Assembly (NCBI GenBank): GCA_024137785.1
Contig: JAHRHZ010000046.1
Coordinates: 16,799,431-16,863,430 of the forward strand
DNA: 64,000 bases
Reading direction: 5' to 3'
Origin: Ginglymostoma cirratum
Taxonomy: Eukaryota
Every line of letters begins with the position of its first letter. Position 1 is the stretch's first letter. The notes below the pieces were generated by a model that was not told where the DNA came from, made no database searches, and worked only from the letters and a program-made list of their open reading frames with translations. The position numbers were made by a program, and so were the translations under genes. Shown in pieces: positions 373 to 57,795 of the stretch.

Positions 373-472
373 GAGTTCTGAAGATGATGTTGGACTGAAA
401 ACAAAAATGTTAACACTCTATCTCCCCAGTTGTTGCCAGACCTGCTGAGATTGTCCAGCATTTTCTGTTTTT
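373..472 (+). mobile_element. Older copy of the 100-bp hammerhead-headed element
   Basis: GAGTT-CTGAAGA...TGAAA...TGTTAAC...TGCCAGACCTGCTGAG...TCCAGCATTTTCTGTTTTTATT, collinear with 10282 and 24859. Confidence 0.65.
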
Positions 473-3400
473 ATTATTATTATGCACATGACCTTGGTAC
501 ATTAGGAGCATGTTACTGGCTTTGCAGAGAATGCAAAGGAACATTTCCAATCTATTACTGTGAATTTTAGCAGGAAGCTAACTTGAGATTTTTTTTAAAA
601 AAACTGGACAATTGGAGATGGATTTGAAGTAATATCAGGAGGATGTCTCTTAGACGTGAGTTGGGCATTTCTCGTTAACAGATCATGAAGGTGGTTTAGT
701 CCTGAAATGCTGTAGATTAACAGATTTAAAAATGAATGCATTTCCCTTTCAACATGCCTCCTCTTGAAGAGGAGAACAGAAATAATATTTCTGTTCCTTT
801 AGTTACCAGTACCATATACCATTCCTTACACTAGAGGTTGTTCAAGAAAGCTGTGACACTGGGATGGATTTTACAGCTGTAAATTGTGCAGACTGTTCTC
901 TTATTCTTAAGTACGACTTAAGTATTCTTAAGTACAAGCCCTGCTTGTCTCCTATAATATGTAAGGCAAGTGTGGACAGAATCAGAAGCCCACACACCAT
1001 TTTACAAAAATCGATTTTCATTAATTATTGAACTTTTAAATAAAAGTTGACTACTTTTCATTGGCCACTCCAACTTTTGCCAGTTGTGTGGGGGAATGTT
1101 TGAAGTCACATATGCTAGGTTTGAGTAGACAACACAGGGCAGACATTAAGGCTTGCAAACAGGACCGTAGATGTATGTGGCAACAGTCTGCTGCTGAAGG
1201 TGACATTGTTTGGTTGTTAGGACACTCTATTTGTTCAGTTTTTATAGGCTGATATAACACTTGAGAGAGAGCCAAGGAGGTCTTCAAATTGGCGTCTGGA
1301 GCCACCTGGTTCATGGCATGACCACTGGTCTGCCAGCTGTCCTGCCCTAAATGCCCATTTAGGCCTTGAACTTCCCATTTCACAATGCAATTTGACTGGT
1401 ATTCCCTTTAGTTGGCATCTGATTCAAAATGGTGAAGGTGAGAATGAACACTGTCTTCCTCCCTTATCCAGCAAGAAAATGTAAAACCAATCCATTGTCT
1501 GTGTTGTGTATTAGCAGTGCAATAGCAGGCTGAAATATCTTGCCATGAAATGGGACATTTTATCAACCCAACTGGGAGAACGATTTTGCCTTTAACACCA
1601 TTTGTGAAAACCGAGTAACTTCTGGCCAAAACCCTTGCCAGACAGTGAGTAAATCTTGTTGAGTTGATGCATTTTAATTTTGTGCTTATGGAGGATTTTG
1701 CTTGACTTGATATTGGATTCAGTTGGCAAGATTAAATGAGACAGCAAGCAATTAAATGTTACAGCAATACTTCACAGTGGTAGTGGCAAGTCTTTGCTCG
1801 GTCAATGTATTGCAGTGAATGATTGTTTTACTTGGAGGCCCTTTTAAAAAAAAAAAAAAGCACTAATTTTGTTTTGAAGTTTGAGGAGCAGATTGCATAA
1901 TTTTCCAGCTTGCTTCGCAAAAGATCGCCCATTGCAAACCAAATTGTTGTTGAGTTTACCAGTTATTGTCAAAAAAAACTTGTCTAAAGAACAGTGGATA
2001 TTTTTCCTATTGACCTGTGTGGATTACAGAGATATTAGAAAATGCCAAACGTAGTGGTGAGATTCACAGAATATTAATGATGTTTCTGACCTGGGTGCTA
2101 ATGCTGAACTGTGACTGGGTTGTATTTTAACTTCAAGAAGACTTCAGTGGGAACTCAGCTTTTTCTGTAGATTTGCTGTGGTGCAGTCTTGAGAGGTTTG
2201 AGGAGCATGCTGGGCAAAACTTGCCAAAGCTGAGCCTTACTTTCGCTTCTCGTGTGTTCTGTACATGTATCGACAGGTTGCAGGGTCTGCTAGTTTCAAA
2301 GCACTGTGCAAATGTGCTGGAAAGCTGTAAATGGAGCAAGTCAACATCTTATTTTGTCACCTTGCGCAAACAACTCCTATTCTTCGGTGACTCAACAAAT
2401 TTCCAACTTAATCAATTTAATTCTAAAATAACACTGCGGTGCCGTAGTAGCCCTCTTCATTATGTGTGGACCAAAAGACTGCGTGCACCTTGGAGAGGTG
2501 ACATTTGAGAGCTGCACAGGCAATGCCCTAAACTTGGAGAATAATTTGACAAAGATCCATGTCTTTATACGTGAGATATCCACCCATTTTGATCTGAGTT
2601 TGACACAGTAAAATTCATTTTCCAAAGAAAATTGCAATTCTATTTCTGTTATAATTTTGGGAATGTTAAAAGCCTCGCCATGTCAAAACTCTATCCTCCC
2701 AAATAATTAATTTCTGAAGAAGGATGATATAATTGAACGTGATGCAGAAGATTGAATACTGTAAAATATTAAATCTGAGAGATTGCTGTGTCGTGGGAAT
2801 GGCTTGCGAATGAGGTTTTTGAAGAGGGATCTTTACAATCCCTGTAGCCTGAATTGGAAAACAATATATTATTGGCTAAGAATTGACATGAATTTTCAGT
2901 GTGTAAGTTATATTGTTCGCTTCCTGAATTGTTCATTGGACTGGGTTGGGTCATGCCTCACTGGGATAGTATACTGGAAATCAACTCCCAGGATCATCAC
3001 AAAAGTTAGCTTCCACAGAAGTATGTAAAATTCCCCAATTTACTTGTCTTTTAGAAATAGGCTAATCATGTGGACCAGGTTTCTGTACTTAATAAAAATT
3101 GCGTTATATTCCAAGTGAATACAATTTAACTACAAGTACACAGTTATGAACCATTGACACAAGTCTACTAATTAAAACTCTATATAAATCCTTCATAAAC
3201 TCCTTTATACACAGTTACGCATGCACAGATGGACAGAGGTAAAACTAGGAAAGGCGGTTTAATGGTCTCGGTTTGTAGGATCTGCTAAGATGATTCTTGT
3301 GCTGATCAAAACACTGCTCCCTGATCTTCCTTCTCCAGGTGTTTCCACTGGTTTGCAGGAGGCACAGGGAGCAGGTTCATATTAATAAAAGGTCTCTGGT

Positions 3401-4386: not shown

Positions 4387-5075
4387 AGAGTCATAGAGCT
4401 GTACAGCAAGGAAACAGACCCTTCGGTCCAACTTGTCCATGCCAACCAGATGTCCTAAATTAATCTAGTCCCATTTGCCAGCATTTGGCCCGTATCCCTC
4501 CAAACCCATCTTAGTCATATACCTATTCAGATGCCTTTTAAATGGAATAATTGTACCACCTTCCCCCAACTTCCTGTGGCAGCTCATTCCCTACACACAC
4601 CGCCCTCTGTGTGAAAAAGTTGCCCCTTGGGTCCCCTTTGAATTTTCCCCCTCTCAGTTTAAACCTATGCCCTGTAGGTTTGGACTTCCTTATCCCAGGG
4701 AATAGACCTTGGCTATTCATCCTGTCCATGCCCCTCATGATTTTACAGATCTCTGATGCTCAGCCTGTGAGACTCCAAGGAAAATAGCCCCAGCCTATTC
4801 AGCCCCTTCATATGGCTCAAACCATCCAACCCTGGCATCATGCTTGTAAATATTTTCTGCACCCTTTCAAGTTTCACAACATTCTCCCTATAGCAGGGAG
4901 ACCAGAATTGAACGTAGTATGCCAAAAGTGGCCTAACCAATGTCTGCAACATGACCTTCCAACTCCTATACTCAATGCACTGACCAATAAAGGCAAGCAT
5001 ACGAAATATTATCTTAACTATCCCGTCTGCCTGCAACTCCACTTTCAAGGAACTGTGAACCTGCGCTCCCAGGTC
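4387..5075 (-). mobile_element. CR1-clade LINE 3' fragment (elasmobranch HER1-like)
   Basis: ORF 4743-5048 LVRPLLAYYVQFWSPCYRENVVKLERVQKIFTSMMPGL..LNRLGLFSLE; ORF 4538-4738 GHRFKLRGGKFKGDPRGNFFTQRAV; 3' end GGGTCTGTTTCCTTGCTGTACAGCTCTATGACTCT. Confidence 0.9.
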
Positions 5076-6204
5076 AACTTTGCTGAATGGAATAGAAATG
5101 CTTTTGTGTTAAATTATGCACATACATTGAGGATCTTGCAGCTCTTCAGTTCTAGAATTTGATGTTTCAGGTTTGTCTATTTATCAAAAGTTGCCCAAAT
5201 GGCTTTCTGCAAATTGCTTATCTGGATTCAGCAATTTTCATTTCATAGTTGCTGCAACTAAAATCGCCTGCCTCAGGACAGGCTGGATCTTGAACCTGAG
5301 GTACACACGTACATGGCTTCATACTGCACCATATCTGATGATGGATGCCTTTTAATTGTTTCATTTACTCCTTCCACCACCTTTAGACTATACTTAGAGT
5401 AGATGGTTGCTCTGTACGTTAGATTTTATTCAGCAGTCACTCAACTTAAACAGGTGAATAGCTGTGCAATGAAGCAATGCAGCCTAGTATTACTACATAA
5501 TATTACCAAATTGTAAAACGAGGGGCAAAGTAAAATAGGTTTAAACTTCATGCTTTGAAGGTTACAAAACCCTGGAGTCACATTTCAATGGTTGCTTGGT
5601 AGTGCTTTATTTTCCCCGATGCTACTTGCATCGACTGTTAAGAGTAATGAACCATCATTAGTGTTGCAGTTGAAAATTGTGCCAGCAAAAAAAAAGTGGC
5701 ATTCACTAACTCCTTTTGTCCCCAGACAAATTGCTGAGGTTGAACTATGCCATGAGTACCAGGGACTGTACATTATCTTTGAGACTCGAAAAATCATGCC
5801 CATAGTAATTTCTGGTAGTGTTTTCATATTTCTCTTTAAAGATTTTAAACATTTACAGTCTCTGCCTCATTACATTCAAAGGAGGCATTCCTCACAAAAA
5901 CAAATAGCGCATCACCAAGGAGCCATTGAGATATGGCTCTAGGGCTTCTCTGCTTATCAGGAAGTTTAGTATCTGCTATATTTTATTGTATTACACTTTA
6001 ATAATTTGATGAAGTAATATTAATGGGATACATTGTTTCATTGCACAGTTAGTTTGCTTTGGTTGAGGGCTTGCTACATTAAGTAATTGAATTTTAAAGT
6101 TTCAACCTACTATTTTGTATGTTCTTTTATATTTGGGAATCAAGTTAATGTAGGAACTTTCCCTCTGACATAGCAGCTATAGCTCTTTTGATAGGATATT
6201 TATT

Positions 6205-8010: not shown

Positions 8011-8551
8011 GAAGTGCTATGGCAGGAGATCACTTTGTATCACTAGAATGCCACATGCAACCTCATCTCTGATTGGGCTTTACAAGTGATCCTTTGATTA
8101 TAAAACCATGTGTTTGAAGAAAATAATCATTGCCTCACATCTGAATGTCTCAGTTACTGTCTGTAATATTGTCATTAGTATAGTTGTAGCAATTTCAACA
8201 CAAAACGTTGAATAGATTATCTGTTGATGCTTGATGTGTGGCCAGTAATTTGGTTGCATGGGATCAAGAGATTAGGATATGGGCCTAATAGACAGGATGA
8301 ATTCATCAGGTGTCTAGATAAAGTAGTTAGAGAAAAATTGTTTACATTGTCAGAGAGGACAAATTGTAAGGGGATTGGCAACAGAATAAAGGTGTGTGAG
8401 GGGGGTAAACCTTATTTTACATAATGGTTCAGATCTAGAGTTCAGTGCCTGAAAAAACCCGTTGAATCTTGCCTTTCAAAAGGGAATTAGATAATTACTT
8501 ATCAAAAAAAACTAGTGGAGTATGGGAAAATGGGATTATCTGGAGTTCTTA

Positions 8552-8801
8552 GAGATAAAAGGTACTGCAGATGCTGGAGAATCCGAGATAACAAGGTGTG
8601 GGGCTGGATGAACACAGCAGGCCAAGCAGCATCATAGGAGCAGGAAAGCTTGACATTTCGGGCCTAGACCCTTCTTCAGAAATAGGGGAGGGGAAGAGGG
8701 TTCTGAAATAAATAGGGAGAGAGGGGGAGGCGGATAGAAGATGGATAGAGGAGAGGATAGGTGGAGAGGAGGCAGACAAGTCGAAGAGGCGGGTTGGAGC
8801 C
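8552..8801 (-). mobile_element. 3' terminus of hammerhead-bearing PLE-type repeat
   Basis: Near-identical to 43509-43661 and 39988-40103; minus-strand CTGAAGA-AGGGTCTAGGCCC-GAAA-TGTC at 8679-8652. Confidence 0.85.
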
Positions 8802-8804
8802 AAT

Positions 8805-10690
8805 TAAGCCTATTTCAATGCAGAATGCAAGAGGGCATGCCAGGAGCAGCACCAGGCATACCTAAAAAAATGAGGTGTTAACTGGTGAAACTACCAAACA
8901 GAACTTGTCGCACACAAAACAGCAGAAGCAGCAAGTGATAGAGCTAAGTGATCCCACATCCAATGGATCAGATCTATGTACTGCAGTCCTGCCACATCCA
9001 GTCATGAATGGTGGTGGACAGTTAAACAAATCGTTGGAGGAGACCGCTCCACAAATATCCACAACCTTCTTGATGAAAGAACCCAATACGTCAGTGCAAG
9101 AGATAAGCCGAAGGAATTTGCAGCAATCATCAGCCAATTCGATTCACTCCACGTGACATCAAGAAATGGTTGGAAGCGTTGGGCACTAGAAAGCTTATGG
9201 GCCGGTGCAACATTCCGGCAGTAGTACTGAAGAATTGTGCTCCATTATGTGCTGCTGTCTGAGCCAAGCTGTTTTAGTACAGTTAGAACACTGGTATCTA
9301 TCCAACAATGTGGAAAATTGCCCAAGTAAACATCCTGTAAAGAAAAAGCAACCAATTACTGCTCCATCAGTCTGCTCTCAATAATAGTAAAGTGATGGAA
9401 GCTATCATCAACAATGCAATCAAACAGCACATTCTCAGTAATAACCTGGTCAATGATACCCAGTTTGCTTTCCACCATGGTCACTCAGCTCCTGACCTCA
9501 ATACAGTCTGAGTTCAAAAATGGACAAAATAGCTGAATTCCAGACATGAGATGAGAGTGACAGCCCTTGACATCAAGGCTACATTTGATTGAGTGTGGCA
9601 TCAAGGAGCCCATCAAAGTTAGTATCAATGGCTATCAAGGAGCAAACACGCTGTGAGTTGGAGTCATATCTGATAAGTAGGAAGATAGGTGTGGCTTTTG
9701 GAAGTCAATCGTTTCAACTCCAGGATTTCTCTGTAGGGGTTTCTCAGGGTAGTGTACTACGTCCAACCATCTTCAGCTACTTCATCAATAACCTTCCCTC
9801 CATCATAAGGTCAAAAGTGGGGATGTTCACTGATGATTGCAAAATGTTCAACACCATTCACAACTCCTCAGATACTGAAACAGTTCATGATCAAATGCAA
9901 CAAGATTCAGACAAGATCCAGGCTTGGGGTGGCAAGTAACTTTAGTGCCATACAAATGTGAGGCAGTGACCATCTCCTGGAAGTGATAATCTGTTCAGTG
10001 GGTGTTACGATCACTGAACATCCTTGAACATCCTGAACTATCAACATCCTTCGGGTTATCCATTGACCAAAAATTCAACCAAACTCACTACTTAAATACA
10101 GTGGCTACAACAGCAGGTCTAAGGCTAGGAATACTGCAGTGAGTAACTCACCATCTGACTTCCCAGTGTCTGTCCAACATCTACAAAGCACAGATCATGA
10201 GTTTGATGGAATAGTACCCATTTGTCTGGAAGGATGCAGTTCCAACAGCAGTCAAGGAGTCTGACACCATCAAGGACAAAGTTCTGAGGAAGGGTCACTG
10301 GAACCGAAACATTAACTCTGTTTTTTTCCTTCACAGATGGTGCCAGATCTGCTGAACTTTTCCAGCAACTTTATTTTCGTTCAGGACAAAGCAGCAGATA
10401 CATGAGAACACTATGTTCTGCAAGTTCCCTTCCAAGCCACTCATCATTCTGACTTAAAAATATCACTTTTTTTAAAAAATATATCGCTTTTCCTTCACTG
10501 TTGCTAGGTCAGAATCCTGGAATTTCCTCCTTAATGGCATTTTGGGTCAACCTACAGTACATGGACTGCAGTGGTTGCAGAAGGCAGCTCACCACCACCA
10601 CCACCACCACCTCAAGAACAGCTAGGGATGGGGCAAAAAATTCTAGCCAACCAGCAATGTTCATGCCCCTTGAGTGAATAAAAAAAAAGC
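8805..10690 (+). mobile_element. Decayed CR1-clade LINE (RT region to 3' tail)
   Basis: ORF 9589-9939 GVSQGSVLRPTIFSYFINNLPSIIRSKVGMFTDDC (RT motifs); upstream ALDIKATFD*VWH; ends TGAATAAAAAAAAA. Confidence 0.9.
10282..10382 (+). mobile_element. About 100-bp hammerhead-headed mini-element inserted in a LINE
   Basis: TSD AGGACAAAG 10273-10281 / 10383-10391; GTT-CTGAGGA-AGGGTCACTGGAACC-GAAA-CATT-AAC then CAGATGGTGCCAGATCTGCTGA...TCCAGCA. Confidence 0.82.
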
Positions 10691-13480: not shown

Positions 13481-14380
13481 AAAGACCAATGAAATATTTT
13501 TGTCTTCATTTTGTAGTCATTAAATTGTACAGTTTGAACTGGAGCTCTTTTTTCTAAATTGTGCCCAATTCAAACATCAAATGTTCAAACATCAAATGGG
13601 TCAAGTATGGATTGATCAGATCTTGAACTTTTTAAAAATAATTATCCATTGCCAATAACCATTTCACCTCTACTGTGCATAGCTAGAGTAGTGGTCTTCT
13701 CCACTGCACCCCGTGCATCTCCTGAGGGATCCTTATTCATCTTTTAATAGATCGGATCCATAAACTTTCTAAGTCAGCTCTACTTTATTTAATACCTGAC
13801 GAAGATTATCTTGAATGAAAAGAATTGGGTTCGGAGAGAGTTGCCACTTAGTCCAGGATATCAACCTGTATAATATTAATTTTGCCACTGTTGTAAGTTT
13901 CCTATTTTGGCAAAATAATTTCTCACTCTATCATAGTTTATATTTCATTCAATTAAAACTTGTGCCTGGGTGTACTAACAGCAGATTTGACATAAATGGA
14001 TCACATCACCTGTTCTTCTGGTAAAAGGGCCTTGCAGCTAATATTCACTTGCCTCAGTTCTTTTTCTGTCTTCAGCATTGTTATTCATAGGCACTGTGTA
14101 ATACCTTCATCAGCTAATCTGTAGCTGCACAACAGGCTGCCAGCACTTTGAGAAAATGTAATGTTTTGTATACAACTCTTCAAAATTGAACACTGAAAGG
14201 TAAACATTCTGTGAAATTCAGAGTGAAGAAATTTGAACAGGGGAACTTAATGGGTTCAGTGTTTGCTTTTTTTAAAAGCTGAGATAGCAAATTATTGTGT
14301 AGTATAAAATTATCTCAGTAAGGGAGTGGAAAGATGCGGTTGTTCATTTGCTCGCCGAGCCGGTTGTTCTGTGGTGTGCA

Positions 14381-14414
14381 GACGTTTCATTACCACTTGA
14401 GGCAACATTGTCAG
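14381..14414 (-). ncRNA. Degenerate type-I hammerhead ribozyme motif in PLE terminus
   Basis: CTGACAA-TGTTGCC-TCAAGT-GGTAAT-GAAA-CGTC, with short stem I (GCA/TGC); core G8 mutated. Confidence 0.7.
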
Positions 14415-16435
14415 TGCGACCTGTAATCGCAGTGTTGGTATTCTGCTCCATTCTGAATTTGTATGATCCTCTGGTGTGGTGAGTCACGTCACTTTTTGGT
14501 TTCTGTTTTTCAGCAGCAGCCTGCATAGAGTCTTTTTCTATGTGTTTGTTAATGGAGTCCCGTGTTGAGAATCAGGCCTCCAGAAATTCCCTTGCGTATC
14601 TGTTGTTCACTTGTCCCAGTATACTCGGTTTGTCTTAGTCGAACTGATGGCCTTCATTGTCTGTGTGTATTGAAACAAGTGAATGTTGGTCGTGTCTTTT
14701 TACTGTCAGCTGGTGTTTGTGTATCCTGGTCGTCAGTTGCCTCCCCATTTCTCCAATGTAATGTCTATTGCAGTCACTGCATGGGATTCTGTATATCACA
14801 TTATTGTCAGTATGGGGTCTTTAGTCTTTGATAGCATTTGGCACAATGTTGATGTAGATTTGTGCAAAATCATGACCCTTTGCGGTCTAAGGAGTCTGCT
14901 TATCATTTCTGATATATTTTTGATGTAGGGTAGGTTATTAGTGTCTTCTGTTGTACTGTCGCCTGACTGTCAATTGTTTTGTTGGCATTGGCGAACAAAG
15001 CTGCTTGGGTATCCATTGTTGGTAAATATCTTATGCAGGTGTTCCTCTTCCATTCTCTGGAGTTCTGGGATGTTGCAGTGTGATATGGCCCATTTTAAAA
15101 AGTATCTTAATGCAGCTGTGTTTGTGCATGGAGGGGTGGTTGCCTTTGAAGTTAAGGATTTCGTCAGTGTGTGACCTTCCTGTACACAGTTGTTTTCTTC
15201 CTCTCTAGTGAATTTTTTGCTTACGAGGATGCTGTTAACAAGTTGGTGGGTTTCTTCTACTTTTGTGCATTTGATCATTACGAATATGTCTTCCACATAG
15301 CTTAGCCACAGTTTCGGTTGGATTAAAGGAAAGGCAGTGTGTTAGACTAGATTTATGCCTCAGAACGCCCTTCACATCCAACAGCCAAATAGACAAACAG
15401 ATTAACGGCAAACCAATGGGATCACCTGTCTGGGGTCTCACCACAGAAGCAGTGATGCAGAGACTGGAACACATAATCCAACTGAAACTGTGGATAAGAT
15501 ATGTGGACACCACATTTGTAATAATCAAATGCACAAAGGTAAAAGAAACTACCAACTTGTTAACAGCATCTTGCAAGCAAAAAATTTACTAGAGAGGAAG
15601 AAAACAACAAACAACTCCAGTGCTTAGATGTAACAGTAGAGAGACTAACTAACGGCGAATTCCGGACCCGAGTGTACAGGAAGGCCACATATACGGGCCA
15701 AATCCTAGACTTCAATAGCAACCACCCCTCCATGCACAAACAGAGCTGCATTAAGACACTATTTAAAACGAGTCGTATCACACTGCAACATCCCAGAACT
15801 CTGGAGAATGGAAGAGGAACACCTGCGCGATGACAATGGATACCTAAGAAATTTTGTTCACTGATACCGACAAAACAAACGACAGTCAGAGGACAAGGTA
15901 CAACAGAAGACACTAGTAATTCTGCTCTACGTCAAAAATATGTCAGAAATGACAACCAGACTCCTTAGACGGCATTGGATCATGATTGTGCAAAAACCTA
16001 CATCTACTGCGTCAAATGGTATCAAAGACTAACTGACAATAAACCCCATACCGACAATAAACAAGACTAACATGATATACAGAATCCCTTGCAGCGAGTG
16101 CAATAGAGATTACATTAGAGAAATGGGGAGGAATTGATAACCAGGATACACAAACACCAGCTAGCAGTAAAAAGACACAACCAATATTCACTTGTATCGA
16201 TACACACAGACATGAAGGCCATCGGTTTGACTGGGACAAAGTGAGTATACTGGGACAAGGGAATTTCTGGAGGCCCGGTTCTCAACACAAGAATCCATTA
16301 ACAATCACCTGTAAATAGAATCCGGATACAGACTGCTGCTAAAAAACAGAAGCAGAAGTGACAAGATCCACCACACAAGAGAATCACATAAACTAGGAAT
16401 GGAGCAGAACACTAGCGCTTCGATTAGAGGCCGCA

Positions 16436-16469
16436 CTGATAATGTTGCCTAGAATGGTAACTAAATGTC
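16436..16469 (+). ncRNA. Degenerate hammerhead motif (second arm of the same PLE)
   Basis: CTGATAA-TGTTGCC-TAGAAT-GGTAAC-TAAA-TGTC; same stem II, two core substitutions. Confidence 0.6.
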
Positions 16470-17343
16470 TGCACACCATGGAACAACCAGTTTGGCGAGC
16501 AAACGAATAACCACGTCCACATCCTGAGCTACAAATTTTCGTTAAGACCTTAAGACTGGAAAGATATTATTTTTTAAAGTAGTACCTATTGGAAGTAATA
16601 AGAGGTCACAACTAAGATATGAGGTAAAATAATGGAACTACAAAAATGTACAGCATAGTCATGTGGCATATTGTCTACGTCTACGCTTTGCTAAAGAAAT
16701 CTGAAACCAATCCCATAGCCTCACATCTGCAAAGCCTTGTATTGAAGGTTAACTGCTATTGAGATGAAATGGGCTCTCTGATTCACTTGAAATAATACTT
16801 GCATGAAGGTGGCAGCACGAGACTGAGTGCAGCATGATCGAGAGCTCAAATTCAGGAACTTAGTTAGTGAAGGATAAGATACTATTCTGGCCTTTGAACT
16901 AGAAAATCAGTGGTCCAAGAAAGAGAACCCAAGACAGCAAGATGTGAAGTCTGGAGACTGGATTGAGATATGCAAATAGGTAATTAATTAAATTTTAATC
17001 AGTTTAAATTGGTTTAAGATGGGAAGATATAAGTATTATATTTGATTTATTGTGGAACTAGTTAAAAATCACTGAGTGACGTTTTAACCTTGAAACCTAA
17101 TTAATTGCATTTTTGAAAAAAGTTAAAATAAGCATCTGCAACTTAAGGGATTTTCAAATTCATGAACTAGAGCTTCAATGTGGACACTGTAATCCATCAA
17201 TAGATGGAAAGTTTACCTGTTCACTTGATTCTAAGAGTCACGTGACAATTTTTAGCTAGGTACCTCCGATACAAAGAGTGGCGTATTTAAGAGATAATAA
17301 TGGATAGGTGTTAGCCTGTGGAACTGTCCAATGGTTCTGAGGT

Positions 17344-22200: not shown

Positions 22201-24858
22201 CATGGTGTGCAATCTTGATCTCTTCACCAAAGAAAATGCACACAGGAAATGCAATGTGCACTTTACAAATGAAAGCATCCAAACTACAAACAGCAGAGAA
22301 TTAAATTGCAGTCAGTATTTCACGTATCTGGTAGGGGTAGTTCTGATGAACAAATCAAATTCTGTTGATTGGAATCGAGTTCCTATAACTCACCTTGGAG
22401 TGGGAGTTAACATTTGTCCACTAGATAAAAGGCTGGTCTTTGAAGTATGATTGAGCAGAATTTGCATGTCTATGCTATATATTGATGTGTGTCTTCTCTT
22501 TCCTCACCCCTTCGTGAAATGTATCTCAAACTAAGATTACTGGTATTTCATTTGCTGCTGAATTCCCCATATGAGAAGGTCAAAACCTGTGTCTTGTTGC
22601 TTATGCTGAAATATATTTGTTCTGTGTTTCTGCGGGCAAAGCAGGAATTTTAAACGTAAATACAATTCTCTGGTGAAGCACTTGGAAAAACTATCAGGGG
22701 TTTAATCTATATTGCATTTTGTTTCTTGATGGATTAATATTAGATATCTTGGAACTGGTCTTGAGCTTAAATGTCCCTCAGTTGGAACAGCTGTTGTAGC
22801 TCATTCAGAGACTTCTGTCAACTTAACTTTTTATGTTCCTTTCAAATTGCTTTAAAAGAAAATGAAGGCATCTTTGATATATGTTTGGGTTATATTCAGG
22901 TGCTCCACTTGTACCTAATATTTTTTTTTCTTTAATTGAAGGCTAAACAATTTTATCTTTGCTTGTCCCTTTATAAAAGGTTCTATTGTGCATTTTAAAA
23001 CTCCTGTTGTGCGTTTTTTAGAAGTTTCCTTTTTATTTTAGCTGCACAAAAATAATGAAGTGAATAAAAATGCACCATGGTTTTTTTTCATTTTTGAAAC
23101 TTTGGACTTTGGTTCCTTCTTATTAAAGGAGATTTCTGTTATTCTTGAGACTTTTTTCTTTAGCGTTCAGTAACATAACTCATGAGTAGAAAGCTTTGAA
23201 GAACAACATGCAGCAAACAAATTGTCTTAAACATGTCAATGTCAAACATCTTGTTTTCAACCTCTCTTGTGTTTTAAAGGTTAGATTTGAATTGAATTGA
23301 ATTTATAAACATAGTACATCCTTGAATTTTTTCCAGTAGAAAGTTTTTAGGTTTATTTTCCATATGTTTTAACCATGACGTTTTGAAAAAAATATAGCTG
23401 GGATATTTACCGTGAACAAGTTCTTACTATGCCTTGCACTTTCCTACAACATTAAAAATCATTATTTTTGGCATTACTGTGATGAAGTGAGTGTGTGGTA
23501 AGTTATCACGCTGTTAGGAGTCCAAAACTGAAAATGATTGGCCTTAACAATGTTATGACAGCAGAGTTTTATGGAAACTTCTGTCTTTCATTTCTGAGGA
23601 TACTAATTGGAGTATATTTCCACTGCCATTGCATGTCTGGGTAGACTTTAGTTCTTCACCTTGGCCTCAAAATTGATTGTTGCCAGGTCAGTCAACTTGA
23701 GAAAGGCACATTGAAGTTAAACTAAGTTTTGCCTGTCACGATCCCATAAATTTTCCACTGAATAGAATTCTGGAAGTCTGAGTAATCTTCTTTCCCCACT
23801 GCAAAGACCACTTGAGGCTGAAGGAAATAAATGAAACACAAAACAGATTAGGGAAATGATAACAGAAGAATCAAAGACTCAGTATGTTCTTGGTGTTTTT
23901 TTATAAAACACCCTGTCAGTAAATTATCCATGTTGGTAGGCTCAGATTCGATGCAACTTTTCAACAAGATGCTGTTATCTTTCTTAAAATTTCAATCAAG
24001 ATTATGGTTTGTTTTTGATACTTGAAATTAATTTGATGAGATTGGTGTACCACACAAACATGGTGAAGAATTCAAGTGGAATGAAAGGATTAATCCTGAG
24101 TAGTCTTTCAGGTAAAACCATTACTGCAGATCAGAAGGCATAAATATTAATGGGTAAATGGTGAGCTTGGGACTGGTGCCAGAAACACTTCCTTAGACAG
24201 TAATCAACTGCTTGGAGTGATCAAATGGCAACAACGTGGATGGAAAAGATTCTTGTCACGACTCAATTGGCACTTGCATACTGTGATTGGAGGAGAAGGG
24301 TTGAAATGGTGTCAGATAGTTTCTCTTTTATCATTGCAGTCTTTCTTTTCGCGCTTGTCTGATTTCTTTTGTTCACGTTCATAAAACTAAGTACAGAACA
24401 TAAAAGTCAGCTCCCCTCTCCATTCATATTTCATCTCTCCTGGACTTATTCTAGTCTTTTGTGTCTTGCTCATTGTTTCATTATACCAGCAAACTAGAAT
24501 TGATCACTAATATACAACAGATGTGATGCCTGCACACCAAAGTTTGAGATCAGGATTGCTTGATCTCATTATGGGTTAGATGCTCTGAGATTTTGAGAAA
24601 TTACAGTCATTTACCTTTTCTGTGCTGTTTTTGTATAAAAGAGCATCTCTAAGCACTATACAACAGAAAAATACAACAGATCATTGTTGCACAGTACAAG
24701 ATGGGATTCTGAATTATTATTTACAATGAACATAAAATGGCAAAGTAAACTATCGAACAGGATAACAAGGGTTTCAGAAAACTTCGTTAATTGATAAAAA
24801 TCTAAAGTGGCTATCTGCACCAGTTGTAGATCTGATGATGAGCAAAGCTACTAAAGCT

Positions 24859-24958
24859 CTGATGAGGAAGCACCGGATTTGAAACATTAACTCTGCTTTC
24901 TCCTCACAGATGCTCTAGACCTGTTTAGTTTTGCCAGAAATTTGTTTTTGTTTCAAAT
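24859..24958 (+). mobile_element. About 100-bp hammerhead-headed mini-element
   Basis: TSD CTACTAAAGCT 24848-24858 / CTGCTAAAGCT 24959-24969; starts CTGATGA...GAAA-CATT-AACTCTG; homologous to 10282-10382. Confidence 0.8.
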
Positions 24959-25729
24959 CTGCTAAAGCTTTGTTTTCTTTGCACACTTAGAAGGAAGCCC
25001 TGAAACTTTGCCATGAACCATAAAATTTAAAGGGTAAACTAGAATGTTGTTGGTGTGAAATTAAGATTATTACAGATTCTATATCACATCGTAGTATGTG
25101 CCTATGGCTCCATAAGGAAGGTAAACACTATTTTCTTTGGCTCCTGACACAAACTCCATCCTTCTTCCTGATAAATATCTGAGGCTCAAACATACTGTTT
25201 GTCGATTTAGCAAATTCACCAAAAGTATGGAAAACAGAAAGGTTCATGAGGCTGGATGAGATAGGTTTGAAGGTAATTCATGTGAAGTATAAACACTGAG
25301 ATAAACCGTTTGACCATTATTACTGTTGCTCGATTCTGTATTAATATCTTTAGGATTGCCATTGACCAATCTCTTAACTAGACCTGACATCTAAAGAGTG
25401 TGCATACAATTTTTTTTTTTTTAATTCATTCATGGCCAGGACAAAGTAGTCTACTTGATTGGCACCCCATCCAGCTTTCCAACCCTTTAATCCCTGTCAC
25501 CTTGAACAATAAGAGAGGCGGAGGCATTAGAACGCCACCGTCTGCAAGTGCCCATTAAAGTTACTTACCACCCTGAATTGGAACAATATTGCCATTCTTT
25601 CATTGTTGCTGGGACTCCTCCTTCACTGCACTATGGGTGTAAGTACAAAACAAGAACTGCAGCAGTTTCCAGAAGCTGATCACCATTCCCTTCTATGGGA
25701 ATGTTAGGAAGGTTGTGGGTTCTGGTGAC

Positions 25730-37439: not shown

Positions 37440-38630
37440 AATACAACCGAGTACTACTTGGTAAATCTTGAGTACTGCTGATGAACGACACATTTTGTTG
37501 AGGTTTGAGGAACACAGCAGGTCAGGCAGCATCAGAGGAGCAAGAATGTTGATGTTTCGGGTCGGGAAGATTTTCTGAAGAAGGGTCCCGATCCAAAACA
37601 TCAACCTTCCTGCTCCTCTGCTGCCTGACCTGTGTTGCTGCAGTTCCACACTGTGTTGTCCTGACTCCAGCATCTACAGTTCTTGCTATCTCCTTTTGTT
37701 GAAGCTTTACATCTTACATTCATCAGGACACTTCGCAAGAATTCCTATTAATGCTGCACAACAGGGGACTGATAATTGATTAGCAAGTGGACTCTGATGT
37801 AGGCTTTGCCATGGGGAAGATACTACTTATACTGATTTAGACTAATTGTTCAAAGCATTGACCTGAGAAATGAACCGGTGAGTGGCAGTTTTGTGGGTAG
37901 AAATGTGTACATGTTCTTTCTGTCTGTGAAGAACAGAGTACTGGGAAGCTCCATGCTTGTTGTATACCCAAATGATATATTACTTCCACTTCCAGAAGTC
38001 ACTGCTTTGCATAGACCTCAAAAATCTGTAGCAGCAAGCAAAGTTACCAGGGAATGTTAGCTTCCATGCGCCACGCTGCAAGTCTGAGTGACAGTCCTTA
38101 AATGGTTCTCGGCATCTTTCCTTGCACATTTGGAATTATCCAGCAAAAGTTGCCTAAGCGCACAATCTCAATTATGTTTGATACTGTGTTGAGCTTCGCA
38201 AGCACAGGCTTGAATATGATCAATACCTTTCTTGTTGGAAACAGTCAGAGGTCGTGCTTTTTGATGCAATCCACAAGTCTTTGGGATAAATGTCTTTGTG
38301 AGGCCAGGTATTGTCAAAGGCCTCTCCAAGGCACAGAAATTCATATACCACCTTATTAATTTGTACAATAGAAAAAATATCACTTTGGCATTACCACAGC
38401 ATTCTGTTATGAACACTACTCAAGTAAATATTAATGGGCACGTTTTTCATAACATTGCCTCTACCAATCAGATTGCACCTGCCATCCAGTCAACAGTCTG
38501 TTCTCATGCAGTGTAAATGTTGATTTCCCCTTGATTTAGTACTCTTGAGAATTGTCCTGATGAGTTCAAGAAGAAAATTTTCAGCACATTGTGTCTTTTT
38601 CAACAGTTCTCAAGTCTATACTACAAAACT
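37440..38630 (-). mobile_element. Second Penelope-like family: 5'-truncated GIY-YIG region (minus) with an inverted terminal-repeat copy at about 38440-38630
   Basis: Frameshifted minus-strand remnants VYEFLC...SQRLVDCIKKH...DCALRQLLLDNSKCA...VLHRQKEHVHI. 37450-37745 (minus the nested insert) is the reverse complement of 38540-38628. Both carry TGTC-CTGATGA hammerhead boxes (37726 minus, 38557 plus). Confidence 0.75.
37502..37693 (+). mobile_element. Fold-back PLE-terminus mini-element with decayed hammerhead, nested in the element above
   Basis: TSD TTTTGTTGA at 37493-37501 and 37694-37702; arms about 37513-37567 and 37586-37635; CTGAAGA-AGGGTCCCGATCC-AAAA-CATC at 37575-37602. Confidence 0.8.
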
Positions 38631-39931: not shown

Positions 39932-40103
39932 GCAGGCCAAGCAGCATCATAGGAGCAGGAAAGTTTGATGTTTCGGGCCTAGAAGGGTCTAGGCCCGAAA
40001 CGTCAAGCTTTCCTGCTCCTATGATGCTGCTTAGCCTGCTGTGTTCATCCAGGTCCACACCTTCTTATCTCTGATTCTCCAGCATCTGCAGTACCTATTA
40101 TCT
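39932..40103 (+). mobile_element. Fold-back mini-element of the same family (53-bp arms plus unpaired 3' tail)
   Basis: Arms 39931-39983 and 39988-40040, loop AGGG; TSD CTGTCCCTGTATATA (39917-39931) / CTGCCCCTGTATATA (40104-40118). Confidence 0.88.
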
Positions 40104-40699
40104 CTGCCCCTGTATATAAGTGGCTGCATGTTTATTTATTCATAGATTTCTGTTGTCTCAGTTCTTCTGAATTTTTGAAGTGCTGCATTGTAGTGGCATA
40201 GTACGTGGGCACTCTCATCAGGGCTGTGTGTCATAGATTGCTGGGACACAGGCCTGCTTGTTCCTCAGTCATGTGTCATGTCTCCTCCCGTTTGTTCCAC
40301 CAGCATAAATTTTCAATCTCAGTTACACTAGTATACAAAAGAGCTGAGGCAAGTCACAACCTAATGAGAAGAGATGGTAACCCCTGAACTGCACTGACTC
40401 ACTTCATTCATTATTGTGGAATGCAGAAGTTGCTTTTGGTTGACATTCTAAGTACATGAATGTTGTTGTTTAGACTGGAACATGAGGTGTGTTAGATTTG
40501 TTTTTAATTGTTTTATCCTCCTTCCAGAATGCTGAAGGCAGTACTTGTGCCCCAGCCTCTGACAGCTAATTCAGTGCATTATCCAATTTGGAACTTTCTG
40601 ATGTGTATGCCAAAATTAACCAGGAAACAGAAGGAGCTTAACCCTCCTTTTTCCCTTTCTACTGGATCAAATTATGCAACACAGGTAGATCGCACTCTT

Positions 40700-42940: not shown

Positions 42941-43108
42941 GTACAGCCATATTTCAGTTAATCAATTGCTTCAGCCATATAGATTTCCAAACTAAGAAGA
43001 AATTAAAACATCAAGAGTGTGAAAATGAGATAAAAGGTACTGCAGATGCTGGAGAATCCGAGATAACAAGGCGTGGGGCTGGATGAACACAGCAGGCCAA
43101 GCAGCATC

Positions 43109-43508
43109 NNNNNNNNNNNNNNNNNNNNNNNNNNNNNNNNNNNNNNNNNNNNNNNNNNNNNNNNNNNNNNNNNNNNNNNNNNNNNNNNNNNNNNNNNNNN
43201 NNNNNNNNNNNNNNNNNNNNNNNNNNNNNNNNNNNNNNNNNNNNNNNNNNNNNNNNNNNNNNNNNNNNNNNNNNNNNNNNNNNNNNNNNNNNNNNNNNNN
43301 NNNNNNNNNNNNNNNNNNNNNNNNNNNNNNNNNNNNNNNNNNNNNNNNNNNNNNNNNNNNNNNNNNNNNNNNNNNNNNNNNNNNNNNNNNNNNNNNNNNN
43401 NNNNNNNNNNNNNNNNNNNNNNNNNNNNNNNNNNNNNNNNNNNNNNNNNNNNNNNNNNNNNNNNNNNNNNNNNNNNNNNNNNNNNNNNNNNNNNNNNNNN
43501 NNNNNNNN
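43109..43508. other. Assembly gap (400 N)
   Basis: Run of n. Confidence 1.
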
Positions 43509-43529
43509 AGAACCCTCTTCCCCTCCCCC

Positions 43530-43565
43530 ATTTCTGATGAAGGGTTTAGGCCCGAAACGTCAAGT
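43530..43565 (+). ncRNA. Minimal type-I hammerhead ribozyme with intact core
   Basis: ATTT-CTGATGA-A-GGGT-TTAG-GCCC-GAAA-CG-TC-AAGT: CUGAUGA and GAAA boxes, 4-bp stem II, palindromic ACGU stem III, GUC cleavage triplet, 4-bp stem I. Confidence 0.75.
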
Positions 43566-44229
43566 TTTCCTGCTCCTATGATGCTGCTTGACCTGCTGTG
43601 TTCATCCAGCCCCATGCTTGTTATCTCGGATTCTCCAGCATCTGCAGTACCTTTTTATCTCTGTTTCTGATATAACTGTTTTTAAAATCTTAAATTTTAA
43701 AATGCTAGTCAATGAGTTGAAGTGAATTCTGTAGTTTGCTGTAACCAATTTTATTACCATAAAAATAGTTTGAAAGGGGGAGAAAAAGAACCTAACTGAT
43801 GAGGATTAGAATTCCAAACAGTTCAGCAAAGGAAGTATTTGTTATGCAAACTTTGGCAGCTCCTTTCTTTCAAAAGCCAAAGCTGGAGAATTGCCTTAAA
43901 ATGGTTTGACATTTCAAACAGTTTAGGCCTGAGCCATGTATAAAAATGTTGCTTTGCTCTATTTACTACACCCCTCACATATTTCTGTTTTGAGTCTCTT
44001 GCTTATTTATGTCTGATTTGTATGCAAATTTTCACTTCACTCAACTTAATGGCTGTAGTTCTCTTGCCCTCCTGTGCCTGGTTTCATCCAGAGTTAAGCA
44101 AGTAACCAATGTTAAGAATGTGGTCTTTTAGTGCCTGTTTGAAAACCAATTACATATTTCTAAATGAAAAGGATTATTCATCCTTCAAGCGTTATGCAAA
44201 AGATGTGTTTTTTAACTAAGGTATAACTA

Positions 44230-44570: not shown

Positions 44571-44712
44571 TTTGTAAAATATGTTACTCCTATTCATTCC
44601 AGTCTTCCATCTTTGGGATTGATACTTATTCTTGTGAATATTGCAATCTATGCTATTGTATTTCTTACTTGCTGGGTCATTATGAACAAAATTGCAATGA
44701 AATGACCGAAAG

Positions 44713-44850
44713 AGCATAAGAAGCAGGAACAAGAATAGGCTGTTCAGCCTCTCAAACCTACACTGCCATTCAATAAAATAATGGCTGATCCAACATTTTT
44801 CACGTCCACTTTCCTGCCCTTTCCCCATAACCCTTGATTCCCTTCCCAAT
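44713..44850 (-). mobile_element. CR1-clade LINE 3' tail
   Basis: CATAAGAAGCAGGAACAAGAATAGGCTGTTCAGCCTCTCAAACCTACACTGCCATTCAATAAAATAATGGCTGATC, like 52759. Confidence 0.75.
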
Positions 44851-50032: not shown

Positions 50033-50045
50033 GATGATGATGATG
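49981..50045 (+). repeat. Compound microsatellite (TTA)17 followed by about 5 TGA units
   Basis: Direct reading. Confidence 0.95.
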
Positions 50046-52758: not shown

Positions 52759-53035
52759 TATAAGAACATAAGAACCAGGGGCAGGAGTAGGCTGTCCGGC
52801 CCTTCGAGCCTGCTCCGCCATTCAATAAGATCATGGCCGATCTTTTTGTGGACTCAGATCCACTTACCCGCACTCTGACCGTATCCCTTAATTCCTTTAT
52901 TGTTCAAGAAAAATCTACCTTAGCTTTAAAAACGTTTACTGAAGTAGAATCAACTACTTCACCGGGCGAGGAATTCCATAGATTAACAACCCTCTGAGTG
53001 AAGAAGTTCCTTCTCAATTCAGTCTTAAATCTGCA
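52759..53035 (-). mobile_element. Young CR1-clade LINE 3' end
   Basis: ATAAGAACATAAGAAC tail, GGAGTAGGCTGTCCGGCCCTTCGAGCCTGCTCCGCCATTCAATAAGATCATGGC with CpGs retained; RRNFFTQRVVNLWNS on minus. Confidence 0.88.
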
Positions 53036-53654: not shown

Positions 53655-54050
53655 CATGCCAATGAACCTATTTTTGAAGTATGGTCACTGTTATAATATT
53701 AATACACAGTCACTTTGTGCACACCAAACTCCCAAAAATAGCAACATGATCATGGCTAGATACACGTTTTCTTGATGTTGCCTGAGGGATAAACAAATAC
53801 TGCCAGGATACTGAGGAGAACTCCCAGCATACCCTCAACAATATCCTCAAAATAATGTGATTGGTTCTTTTGCATCTACTTGAGAGGAATGGCAGGGCCT
53901 CAATTCAGCATCTCATCGAAAACAGATTACACGTCTGAATGTGCTGCATCAGTGTGTCAGTCTAGATTTTGTGCTTGTGTTGAATGGAACTCAAACCAAA
54001 ATCTTTTAATGCCGAGGCGAAAGTGCTGTCACAGAACCATGCTGACACCA
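53655..54050 (-). mobile_element. Deu-domain SINE
   Basis: TTTTGAAGTATGGTCACTGTTATAAT..CAAACTCCCA..GAGGGATAAA..GGGCCTCAATTCAGCATCTCATCGAAAACAG..CAGTGTGTCAGTCTAGATTTTGTGCT. Confidence 0.65.
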
Positions 54051-54510
54051 TGCTCAAATTTGTATTTGTATTAGGCCTTATCACGTCTCTTAATGCATTC
54101 ACGTATAATTACATACTTTGAAATGCAGTGATTGGAACCAAATATGTCGGGTGCTTTGAGTACGAGATCTCATGAGCTGAAATGAGTCTCATGAATGGAC
54201 AGTATGTCAGTTTTTGATGGTAATGATTAAGGAAGGAATTTTGGCCAAAACCACCAAGGAAAACTTGCAATCGTGTTTGAGTTGTAAAATTGGATCTTTT
54301 CCATCCACAGGCAGCTAGCATTTGAACTGTTGCTTTCAAAGTGAGTTGGTCTGCATTAAAGATCTGAAAATATAAGCCAGCCTTCTCGAGACACATGGCA
54401 TGGTCCGATAGCCATATCATCTGAGGTTAGAGAGAGATTTCAGTCCAATCCCGTGTTACACGTGCTGGAACTCGCACTGACCTATTGACACCAGAGCCTT
54501 TGGTAACCCT

Positions 54511-54635
54511 GAGATAGTAAGAACTGCAGATGCTGGAGTTAGAGGTAACACAGTGTGGAGCTGGAAGAAGCGTCCCGACCCAAAACGTCAGCTTTCCTGT
54601 TCCTCTGATGCTGCCTGGCCTGCTGTGTTCCTTCA
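54511..54635. mobile_element. Rearranged mini-element of the same hammerhead family (tail on minus joined to an inverted internal part)
   Basis: GAGATAGTAAGAACTGCAGATGCTGGAG... joined to GTCCCGACCCAAAACGTCAGCTTTCCTG...; GTAACC repeat at 54503-54508 and 54636-54641. Confidence 0.75.
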
Positions 54636-54754
54636 GTAACCTTGGTATACATACTATACCTGACCTGTCTTTGTTGGCCACATTCTAAAATATATGTGAT
54701 CTTGTGTATCACCCTGATGGCAATGTGGATTTACTGCTTTTGCATTTTTTCATT

Positions 54755-55430: not shown

Positions 55431-55445
55431 TTGTCTAATTAGTTA

Positions 55446-55480
55446 TGGTGTTGTGTTGTGGTGTGGTGTGGTGTGGTGTG
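55446..55480 (+). repeat. (TGTGG/TGTGT)n pentamer repeat
   Basis: Direct reading. Confidence 0.85.
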
Positions 55481-57584
55481 ATATGATGGGTGGATTTAAT
55501 AGAAAAGTGTAAATGTCAGTCTTCTGCACCCTGAACTAAAGCATCCGATTTAAAAAATCCACTTTGGTCAACTTGTGAGCCTGACCAAGCAAACTAACTT
55601 TGTGACCTACTCAATAATAAAGTGAGTTCTACTTAAAGTACAACTATTATATATTAATATCTGTGCACCATCCCAATTTTACGAATGCTTAAGCATTGAT
55701 AAAATGTATTGAAGATGTCTGGAATTCTGTTAATCCCATTACTTTTTTTTGAATGTTTGAAATTTTCTGTCTCCTTGACTTGGAAGAAATAATTCAGTTT
55801 TTAATTGATTGAGAGTAGACATGCTACGTATTCCCTGGGATGTTTAATTCTGTTCTCTGAATGCTGTGCTTATTCTCCTCCTCCTAAAGTATAGGTATGA
55901 CTCAACCCTTCAGCATTATGTTGATCAGGTACTGTGGCCATTTTTCTCCATCCCAAACCCTCAACTTCATTTAACATACTTCAAATACTTTCTCTGACCA
56001 AGAGTGATGAACCTTAATCTTAGTACTTTGCTCCAAATGGTTAATGTAAAATGTCGTCTCATGGGGGAAGGGGACTAAGCAGAGATTTGTCAACAACAGT
56101 AAGAAATGTAAATGAGTGAAGAATATTTTATTGGTGCAGTGCAGATATACTGTTTGAGTGCTGAGTTGTTGTACATTTAATAAGCAGTAAAACAGTAATG
56201 GTGTGATGGAGTGATGATGTGGAAAAATAATCTTTCATTGCTCAGCATCAGTAATATTCTGACAATGAATTGCAAATGCTAACCTCATTCTCATTGACAT
56301 TAATTTAAATGTTTGTGCGGTTCAGTCTCTTTAAAACATTTCTTGCTCCCCCTTAAACGCCCTCCTTAAATCTGCAAGGAATCAAAATGCATGGATCCAG
56401 ATAGTTGTTAATCACTGTACGCTTTACATATTTAGCATAAGGATAGGAAATGTAAAATACATGAAGCAAAATTTTCAAATGTAGAGGTGAACTGTTTGTG
56501 GATTAGATCATAATGTTAGAGCATTACATCAGGCCATTCAGTCCATCAAACATATTCCTTTTATTCACAAAACCATCTAATCTTATTCTATTCCCTCGTT
56601 TTTCCCCTCTATTTCAATAAATTATTTTATTCACTTTAAAAATAAATTATGATATTTGCTTCAAAAACTGTTTTCTAAGTTCATAATTAAAAGTTAGGTT
56701 TTTGTATTTTGTATCTGTTGAATTCAGGAACCTCAATTGTTATGACACAGTACTAGAAATGCCATTGGTGAGTTTAAATCTTGCCAAACCCTTCAAAGAA
56801 GGTAATTTACTAAGAGCGCCTGATCCAGATTAGTTGTGTTGATTTGATCCCTACAGATGAATTAGGAATGAATACATAATAGTAGCTTGTCAATGTCTCC
56901 CACATCTCAAGTACAAGTAATACAAAACAAAATTAAAACCATTCACACATTTATGGTCCTGTTTCCATGTGCTGATAAAGTTTATTGTCTTGCATTTCCA
57001 TATATTAATACCCATTTTCTGTTGTCTTCAATTTAAAAGCTGAAAGTATACGGTTCATTCTTTCTTTCCACGCTTTGAAAGTGTATTAGCTCACATTTGA
57101 CTCCATCTGTTGTCTCCTGGCCTATTCTAATCTAGCTCCCAAAGCCCTAGACTAACCACCCATCCTTCCCAATCTTTCATGTACCTTCCACAATCTTCAA
57201 ATCTTTCCATTTTTTTGACATCAGATTGAATACTCAATCAGTTCTTAAATCCAGTTCAATATGTGTTGATGTGTATATAGTATATGTATTTTGTGTGTAT
57301 TCACATTGTCGTTCTGTCAACATTTAGGAAGAAAATAGACAAGTTAATTTCTAGCTGTCAGACAGAGAGTTTCATAAGAACTATAAATTGAAGGGTTTCC
57401 ACCTAAAATGTGAACCTGCGTTTTTTGTTTTTTTTCTTGTATGTTGATAGAATAGAGCAAGTCTATCAGATCTCTATAATCTGAAACCTAGTGATTAAGT
57501 CTACAAAATAGTGGTGTAATTTCTACATGTACAAGTTTAGAAATTTGTGGTATTTTTAAAGCTAATTCTGCTGAGGATGGGGAC

Positions 57585-57795
57585 ATGGAGAACAAAAAGT
57601 AGAAAATGCCTGAAGCATTTAGGCTGCGTTCTATTCATATAGAGAACAGACCATTGATGCCTTGGTTATTTTCCTTCCATAACATCTAATGAAAAGGCCA
57701 TACTCATACTTGAAAAGTTAATTTTTTGTTCTCTCCCTGAAATGCTTTCTGGCCTGAATGCTTAGGTCATATCCTGTGTTTGTTTCAGATTTTAG
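57585..57795 (+). mobile_element. Highly decayed fold-back copy related to the 100-bp family
   Basis: CTAATGA...TTGAAAAGTTAA...TCTCTCCCTGAAATGCT...TGTTTGTTTCAGATTT preceded by a roughly inverted segment (AACAAAAAGTAGAAAATGCCTGAAGCATT). Confidence 0.4.

Follow-up and report, generated by a model that had tools for sequence, protein, structure and literature searches.

Hammerhead-bearing termini in the window

The stretch of DNA analysed here (termed the window) comprises 64,000 nucleotides of the shark Ginglymostoma cirratum (assembly GCA_024137785.1, contig JAHRHZ010000046.1, positions 16,799,431 to 16,863,430 of the forward strand) and contains short termini, attributed to Penelope-like elements (PLEs), that carry the core of a minimal hammerhead ribozyme in various states of decay (Table 1). 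An initial annotation had described about a dozen CTGAnGA...GAAA motifs at 13 sites, in four sequence contexts (families A to D), as belonging to PLE families that share a single insertion architecture. Profiles of six termini (seeded with window copies for C, C2 and D, and with copies from other loci for A and B) recover 12 of these 13 sites at E ≤ 2.5e-6 as termini of four repeat families and give no match in reversed control DNA; the remaining site, 57686, was missed by the window-wide profile search and reaches E = 0.001 only in a targeted search of 260 nt. The motif itself is less widespread than had been described: CTGANGA is literally present at 8 of the 13 sites, CTGANGA together with GAAA at 6 (38557, 8679, 43534, 378, 10284 and 24859), and the strict minimal-hammerhead descriptor is satisfied by 43534 alone. 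Both family A sites share the change G8>A (reading CTGACAA and CTGATAA), and 16436 also lacks GAAA, which is missing at 37726 and 37575 as well; at 39988 and 54562 the 5' truncation reaches into the core. Literal core pairs nevertheless number 10 in the window, against a mean of 2.84 in shuffled sequence, with 1 of 200 shuffles as high. The hammerhead check against Rfam, suggested along with the initial annotation, came back empty: no hammerhead occurs among 15 matches at E ≤ 10.

A tailed arm joined to an inverted, tail-less arm is indeed found in the family A pair and at 37575, 39988 and 54562; however, at 43027-43662 both arms are tailed (with an unreadable interior (N) and a target-site duplication (TSD) not above chance), and 8679 and the window's family D copies are solo. 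TSDs stand above chance for the family A pair, 37575, 39988 and 10284, and marginally for 24859 (score 8, a score reached by 3 of 150 random pairs, scores of at least 9 being reached by 1 of 150), but flanking repeats are at chance level for 378, 54562, 43534, 8679 and the family B pair. The claim of one shared architecture was overstated, since family A lacks the fixed 5' start seen in C and D (described below); moreover, solo insertions are about as frequent as inverted ones. The C2 insertion at 37575 interrupts the tail of the left family B arm, a nesting overlooked in the initial annotation. The two B arms, with homology over at least 544 nt on the left and about 145 nt on the right, are probably one old insertion without a recognisable TSD. 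The family C insertion at 39932-40106 folds back into a predicted hairpin of -106.5 kcal/mol. In terminus density the window is average and no hotspot, with 15 termini in 63.6 kb as compared with 102 in 377 kb of a random sample.

Genome-wide abundance

Pattern counts were taken over the 4.36-Gb genome, and the reversed-sequence control for each pattern gave 0. The exact family C core occurs 51,102 times and a family C downstream 31-mer 156,717 times, the family D core 13,343 times, one family A subfamily 1,064 times and the family B pattern 206 times. A random sample of 60 stretches of 10 kb at round coordinates (21 of them wholly N, leaving 377,280 visible bases) contains 102 termini (43 C, 42 D, 9 C2, 5 E, 2 A and 1 B) and 15 strict motifs, with none in the reversed sequence or in 10 shuffled controls. 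If the visible part is representative, extrapolation puts the termini at about 1.2 million (0.96-1.43) and the strict motifs at 170,000 (97,000-286,000). Adjacent termini of the same family are head-to-head in 15 cases and direct in 3. PLE-like sequence makes up 6.75% of the visible sampled bases and 4.8% of the window, which suggests that the PLE share of shark genomes is larger than usually noted. Roughly a million termini, together with one young family, permit junction statistics beyond the reach of small families.

Link to Penelope-like elements

All four families are linked to Penelope-like reverse transcriptase (RT) and GIY-YIG endonuclease (EN) sequence, and in this respect the initial annotation holds. 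Insertions of EN-bearing PLEs are described as having an inverted 5'-truncated arm, a 30-40-bp tail and an 8-10-bp TSD (PMC3846280; PMC8557442); here likewise an optional 30-40-bp tail, an inverted 5'-truncated arm and a TSD are found, and in C and A the terminus is preceded by an RT with a C-terminal GIY-YIG (for D by the C-terminus of an EN only, and for B via relatives).

Family C, which is young, provides the fullest picture. Loci with long upstream homology match the Pfam domains GIY-YIG (E 2.6e-5) and RVT_1 (E 1.5e-4), and locus L181 is a direct copy, that is, an open reading frame (ORF) between two terminal repeats (pLTRs), with cores 3,530 nt apart and a 12-bp TSD. The nearest named relatives of the family C protein, at 87-91%, are in carpet sharks. 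The protein has a DKG motif and a CX4CxxC linker (CNSRKCYTC in locus L184); because a CX2-5CxxC linker before the EN is described as a feature of Neptune, common also to Nematis (PMC8557442), the family is read as Neptune-type. In L184 (3035-5977, minus strand) a stop-free frame of 981 codons continues through the terminal repeat into the hammerhead. Two ray gene models, P0005 and P0020 (named as kinase-domain and chitinase-domain isoforms), match the family C ORF at 65% and may represent either exonised PLE sequence or annotation artefacts.

Family A has direct repeats about 2.5 kb apart in L191 and L196 and matches RVT_1 at E 9.6e-7 (Pfam recognises the RT only, the EN being assigned by similarity and motif). 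The linker is absent from the A ORF of L191 and from the family B relatives P0200 and P0247, and family A is therefore read, by exclusion, as Penelope/Poseidon-type. The family D terminus lies 250-265 nt after the C-terminus of a GIY-YIG in L186 and L085, and 600 nt after the match in L091; in these three loci the EN C-terminus is 45-55% identical to that of family C. Family D is read as Neptune-like.

Copies of family B resemble one another at 70-75% and are truncated to varying extents, up to about 1 kb. At 21 of 30 loci chosen by an EN remnant the B terminus follows on the same strand, mostly about 550 nt downstream. This remnant has 518 relatives at E ≤ 0.001, RT and GIY-YIG proteins among them; the family B remnants themselves gave no match in word-indexed protein searches or Pfam. 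Matches to PLE proteins near B in L138, L389, L417 and L430 were rejected as belonging to other insertions. The ORFs of A, of C and of B's relatives are only 26-33% identical and hence represent three lineages; B, which is assigned to no named clade, appears to be an old third one, linked to PLEs through its relatives, and could represent a PLE lineage whose hammerhead is unusual in having a short stem II. Its upstream region has several CCAAT boxes, and a TATAAA 44 nt before the core.

A further Neptune-like terminus, family E, is seen in L196 (about 1330-1740, minus strand), L050 and L111, with stem II GAGTC/GACTC and stem I AGCT/AGCT, that is, with two-sided changes relative to D; in L196 a family A element is inserted into it.

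Design, decay and folding of the motif

The majority sequence of each family retains CUGANGA, GAAA, the pair G10.1-C11.1 and a palindromic stem III, while the stems differ in sequence among families yet still pair. Stem I and stem II read UGCA/UGCA and GUUACC/GGUAAC in family A, AGUU/AACU and GGGUC/GACCC in family D (where the predicted cleavage triplet is GUU rather than GUC), and 3-4 weak base pairs and GGGU/GCCC in family C, all three with the palindrome ACGU; family B has UUGUC/GACAA, a stem II of 2 bp and the palindrome AAGCUU. The initial annotation had noted a tiny palindrome as stem III and a stem II whose pairing is mostly kept; in the window copy at 372-475 stem II is decayed. Stem positions in family A are 89% paired, as compared with 26-42% in slid controls. 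Small PLE hammerhead variants were reportedly described by Lunse et al. in 2016/2017, and the B-type motif may be covered there.

Among 116 family C arms that span the motif, 93 have the literal core and 48 are fully intact. Apart from CpG sites, which are changed ten times faster (62/464), differences from the majority are as frequent in the core (14/1,160) as in neighbouring sequence (17/1,390). Since core and neighbours diverge equally, the inserted copies are likely unselected. An apparent protection of core positions (p 5e-6) disappeared once the subfamily-diagnostic positions 33 and 45 were excluded. The population of termini is as dense genome-wide as had been proposed, but as regards its ribozymes most window copies have decayed below a hammerhead core, and dispersed copies are likely inert. 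Fold-back insertions would bury the hammerhead within a hairpin; the motif is likely to function only in source elements that have a pair of direct repeats 2.5-3.5 kb apart, either as a dimer or assisted by protein.

3' ends and the one-tail rule

Position +1 is taken here as C3 of CUGANGA; in family C the cut is predicted between +28 and +29. The 3' ends of family C form two groups about 35 nt apart, at +85..99 (104 of 224) and +120..136 (91 of 224). Exactly one tail occurs in 36 of 38 readable family C head-to-head pairs (of 40 pairs in all; in 15 of the 38, N separates the arms) and in 35 of 37 family A pairs (binomial p ~1e-8). Independent choice of start site would leave about half of the pairs one-tailed, and the two priming events are therefore likely to be coupled; so strict a rule constrains any model of insertion. 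Families A and C share this 3' rule and differ in their 5' behaviour.

5' ends

The 5' ends of family C concentrate just before the core. Out of 233 arms, 33 are more than 200 nt long and 156 have a resolved 5' end: 58 of these lie at -8..-1 (mode -3), as opposed to 4 at -50..-9. Family D shows the same fixed start, at -8..-1 in 23 of 40 resolved arms (45 in all). Genome-wide, 85,248 family C copies match positions -2..+20 and 38,801 of them (45.5%) reach -11, counts that unread stretches and upstream variants may bias. The fixed start is found in five family C subfamilies that also have long copies. Family A, on the other hand, lacks it: 64 of 126 arms are long and the 59 resolved ends are spread out, and in 60 new loci none of 39 resolved arms begins at -8..-1. 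A start 30 nt after the TATA-like box, hinted at in family A by 4 of 20 arms in the first 30 loci, failed in these new loci.

Upstream of the fixed start, family C has TATTTAT at -35 and CCATTTC, and family D TATAAA at -33 and TCAGTT; the start in C and D is read by the usual spacing between a TATA box and an initiator (Inr). A second, smaller pile-up of family C 5' ends occurs at +6/+7 (16/156). An extra T precedes the core at 18 of 57 family C fixed-start junctions, 14 times as A-TTTT or longer, and at none of 54 long arms; it may reflect either slippage at the template end or microhomology with the target.

The predicted scissile bond is spanned by 161 of 189 family C arms with a usable 5' side, and resolved arms show no clear pile-up of 5' ends at the predicted cleavage site. 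What looked like a large peak at +29..34 was an artefact of aligning a subfamily that lacks 1 nt. RNA was checked with fragmented poly(A) reads of two runs. In run X21, 44,120 of 12.9 million reads fall on the repeat, both strands alike, and 86% continue into unlike sequence, which shows passive transcription of dispersed copies and is uninformative on starts or cuts; run X22 gave 14 reads.

Origin of the insertions

Very probably, the insertions are 5'-truncated, decaying terminal repeats of at least three PLE lineages with a minimal type I hammerhead motif, likely produced by target-primed reverse transcription of uncut RNA. The element protein would nick both target strands and would prime from two internal RNA start sites (in family C at +94 and +129 from C3); to form a head-to-head pair both target ends would be used, one start site each. 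More tentatively, the RNA of C and D would begin about 30 nt after the TATA-like box and 3-4 nt before the core, and priming within the 5' repeat might then yield run-off copies of 100-135 nt. PLE promoters are described as lying inside the pLTR, in one case TATA-less (PMC2377424) and in another with a putative TATA and Inr (PMC3846280). That the fixed start in C and D is the 5' end of the RNA has about an even chance at best, because this step failed in family A, the RNA reads are uninformative, and cleavage at ATT or annealing might produce the same start. The most far-reaching version, which on balance falls short of being probable, is that a Neptune-like transcript starts 3-4 nt before the core (stem I thus forming its capped 5' end) and that an RT-endonuclease dimer, priming each of the target ends at a different internal site, runs off this 5' end; hundreds of thousands of 100-135-nt copies resembling short interspersed elements (SINEs) would arise without a non-autonomous master, and cleavage would decap the RNA and serve as an off switch, not as a step of replication.

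Several results weigh against parts of this account. Covariation in family A amounts to 2 two-sided pairs, a score reached by 55 of 500 shuffles, and the hammerhead of family C is not the minimum-free-energy fold, either as a monomer (-3.5 vs -9.3 kcal/mol) or as a dimer (-5.3 vs -28.8 kcal/mol). A direct pLTR-ORF-pLTR copy was not found for B or D, and the clade names given to the families are motif-based. As to the ends, 44 of the 233 family C arms could not be placed at the 5' end (because of N or the locus edge); family D pairs have one tail in 7 of 11 cases, none in 4 and two in 0; family A has a TATA-like box at -48, and the start predicted from it (-20..-14) occurs in 1 of the 39 resolved arms from the 60 new loci; and the poly(A) reads over the repeat show no pile-up of ends that would mark a start or a cut.

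The fixed start could instead arise at the DNA level, either by the EN cutting ATT or GTT within its own repeat or by the cDNA end annealing to T-rich target ends or folding back on stem I, a possibility of real weight though less than an even one. The enzyme of the anole element has a preference for 5'-ATT-3' and cleaves within its own repeat (PMC11167929), and family C has ATT at -4..-2; at least four T precede the core in 18 of 57 fixed-start C arms as opposed to 0 of 54 long arms; and family A, without a T run there, has no fixed start. However, two further ATTT sites about 30 nt upstream in C are nearly free of breakpoints (1 in -50..-21), and family D peaks likewise at AGTT, where TATAAA lies 33 nt upstream.

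It is unlikely that ribozyme-cut RNA is the regular template, with insertions starting at the cleavage site. Although 11 of the 156 resolved C arms begin at +28..+31, against about 4 expected from the neighbouring positions, the larger peak at +29..34 is artefactual; among the rest, two arms stem from one duplicated insertion and the starts are at +30/+31 rather than +29, and family D has none of 40 at +30..33. Quite unlikely, too, is that the short copies are SINE-like elements independent of autonomous ones, or non-LTR retrozymes (LTR, long terminal repeat) spread through ribozyme-cut circular RNA. Solo units of 100-135 nt do have TSDs (exact ones of 7-15 bp flank 9 of 37 unpaired fixed-start C arms, control 0), and pLTR-derived retrozymes are reported from one cartilaginous fish (bioRxiv 2026.07.22.740005); but the window has no tandem array of units, neighbouring same-family termini in the random sample are mostly head-to-head (15 vs 3), units start 3 nt before the core and not at the cut, and short and long copies carry the same subfamily variants. 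It is very unlikely that the motifs match by chance or have ceased to be ribozymes even in the source elements, inasmuch as four unrelated termini (ORFs 26-33% identical) all keep the core elements, palindrome and paired stems and the strict descriptor finds 15 sites in the random sample and 0 in the reversed and 10 shuffled controls, despite the lack of an Rfam match, the 3-4-bp stem I of C, the GUU triplet of D and the 2-bp stem II of B.

Relation to known systems

Minimal type I hammerheads in the pLTRs of metazoan PLEs are published (Cervera & De la Pena 2014, PMC4209133). The motifs described there and those of the shark share the core, G10.1-C11.1, a palindromic 15.2-16.2, several families per genome and a distribution mostly as solo copies or as opposite-strand pairs 100-700 bp apart; A, C and D share in addition the unpaired base between 9 and 10.1, whereas family B differs in its 2-bp stem II, its 6-nt palindrome and the lack of an unpaired base. 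Copies counted there amount to about 4,000 in coelacanth and 9,000 in Xenopus, as compared with 51,102 exact copies of one core here; in the portions available, neither that paper nor its supplement file 2 was found to include a shark.

With EN-bearing PLEs (Arkhipova et al. 2013, PMC3846280; Craig et al. 2021, PMC8557442) the shark families share head-to-head arms, a tail at one end, a TSD and partial tandems and, in C, the Neptune linker; in the available text of both papers a tail is 'often' on one end, without a count or a fixed 5' start, both of which are given here. In vitro, anole Poseidon (Frangieh et al. 2024, PMC11167929) has two internal RT start sites that define the tail, which the two 3'-end groups of family C resemble; uncut RNA is its main substrate, the hammerhead is dispensable for insertion, and RNA reads ending at the cut site are lacking there, as they are here. 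That element is a Poseidon, however, while the fixed 5' start occurs here in Neptune-like families and not in family A, which is Poseidon-type.

Non-LTR retrozymes (PMC7229834; bioRxiv 2026.07.22.740005) similarly are short non-coding hammerhead units related to pLTRs, with 126,247 canonical hammerhead motifs in axolotl; unlike the shark copies, which are dispersed solo or head-to-head with minimal motifs, they are arranged as head-to-tail tandems, carry canonical hammerheads and have circular RNAs. Retrozyme and PLE families of one cartilaginous fish are listed in the latter source and may overlap the shark families here. In the open-access literature, as far as its text was available, neither a description of these shark families nor a report of a fixed 5' start was found; one paper on the whale shark mentions Penelope once.

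Ribozyme-bearing pLTRs with hammerheads, as well as inverted arms, tails and TSDs, have been published for other animals (PMC3846280, PMC8557442, PMC4209133); the present analysis adds the very high copy number, a count behind the one-tail rule and a fixed start that is specific to certain lineages.

Features of the window

Table 1. Hammerhead-family termini and insertions, in window coordinates
Feature	Position	Strand	Evidence
Family D-type solo terminus, stem II decayed, start just 5' of core	372..475	+	Profile E 1.1e-10; ATTATTA flanking repeat at chance
Family C solo arm with tail, 5'-truncated ~130 nt upstream of core; literal core, palindrome CG>TG	8551..8808	-	94% over 259 nt to L181
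Family D solo terminus, start at A(-4)	10280..10382	+	9-bp TSD AGGACAAAG, 10273-10281 / 10383-10391
Family A pair, TSD	14327-14335 / 16557-16565		TGGAAAGAT, flanks both arms
Family A left arm, tail-less; broken RT-thumb/GIY-YIG remnant; relic CTGACAA ~14381-14416	14336..15346	-	tblastn E 2e-67 to L191 ORF
Family A right arm, tailed; broken RT/GIY-YIG remnant; relic of the hammerhead at 16436	15347..16556	+	Arms 79% identical
Family D solo terminus	24853..24961	+	TSD CTAAAGCT, 14 bp with 2 mismatches
Family B left arm (approximate ends); core 37726 decayed (no GAAA); tail split by C2 insertion	37460..38244	-	
Family C2 head-to-head insertion: no tail on left arm, tail on right arm (37573-37692)	37502..37693	.	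TSD TTTTGTTGA
Family B right arm, 5' end approximate, core 38557	38405..38630	+	Probable partner of left B arm; TSD not above chance
Family C fold-back insertion, both arms truncated into core, right tail	39932..40106	.	TSD CCCTGTATATA, 11 exact, 15 with one mismatch
Family C outward-facing ends, both tailed; right arm 43534 the window's only fully intact minimal hammerhead	43027..43662	.	
Family C2 head-to-head insertion: left tail, right arm truncated into core	54510..54636	.	Short flanking repeat at chance
Terminus, probably D-type and very old; literal core absent	57680..57795	+	E 0.001, targeted search

The insertions lie around a single-exon ORF of 632 amino acids with leucine-rich repeat and immunoglobulin domains (31227-33125, minus strand), which we take to resemble LRRC4/NGL-2. 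Two remnants resemble long interspersed elements, one at 4743-5108 (minus strand) with no RVT_1 match and one at 9589-9939 (plus strand) with a weak match (E 7.6e-5). Two further repeat pairs, which by the profiles are not hammerhead termini, are direct at 44710-44844 / 52762-52898 (71%) and inverted at 5459-5612 / 5902-6051 (68%).

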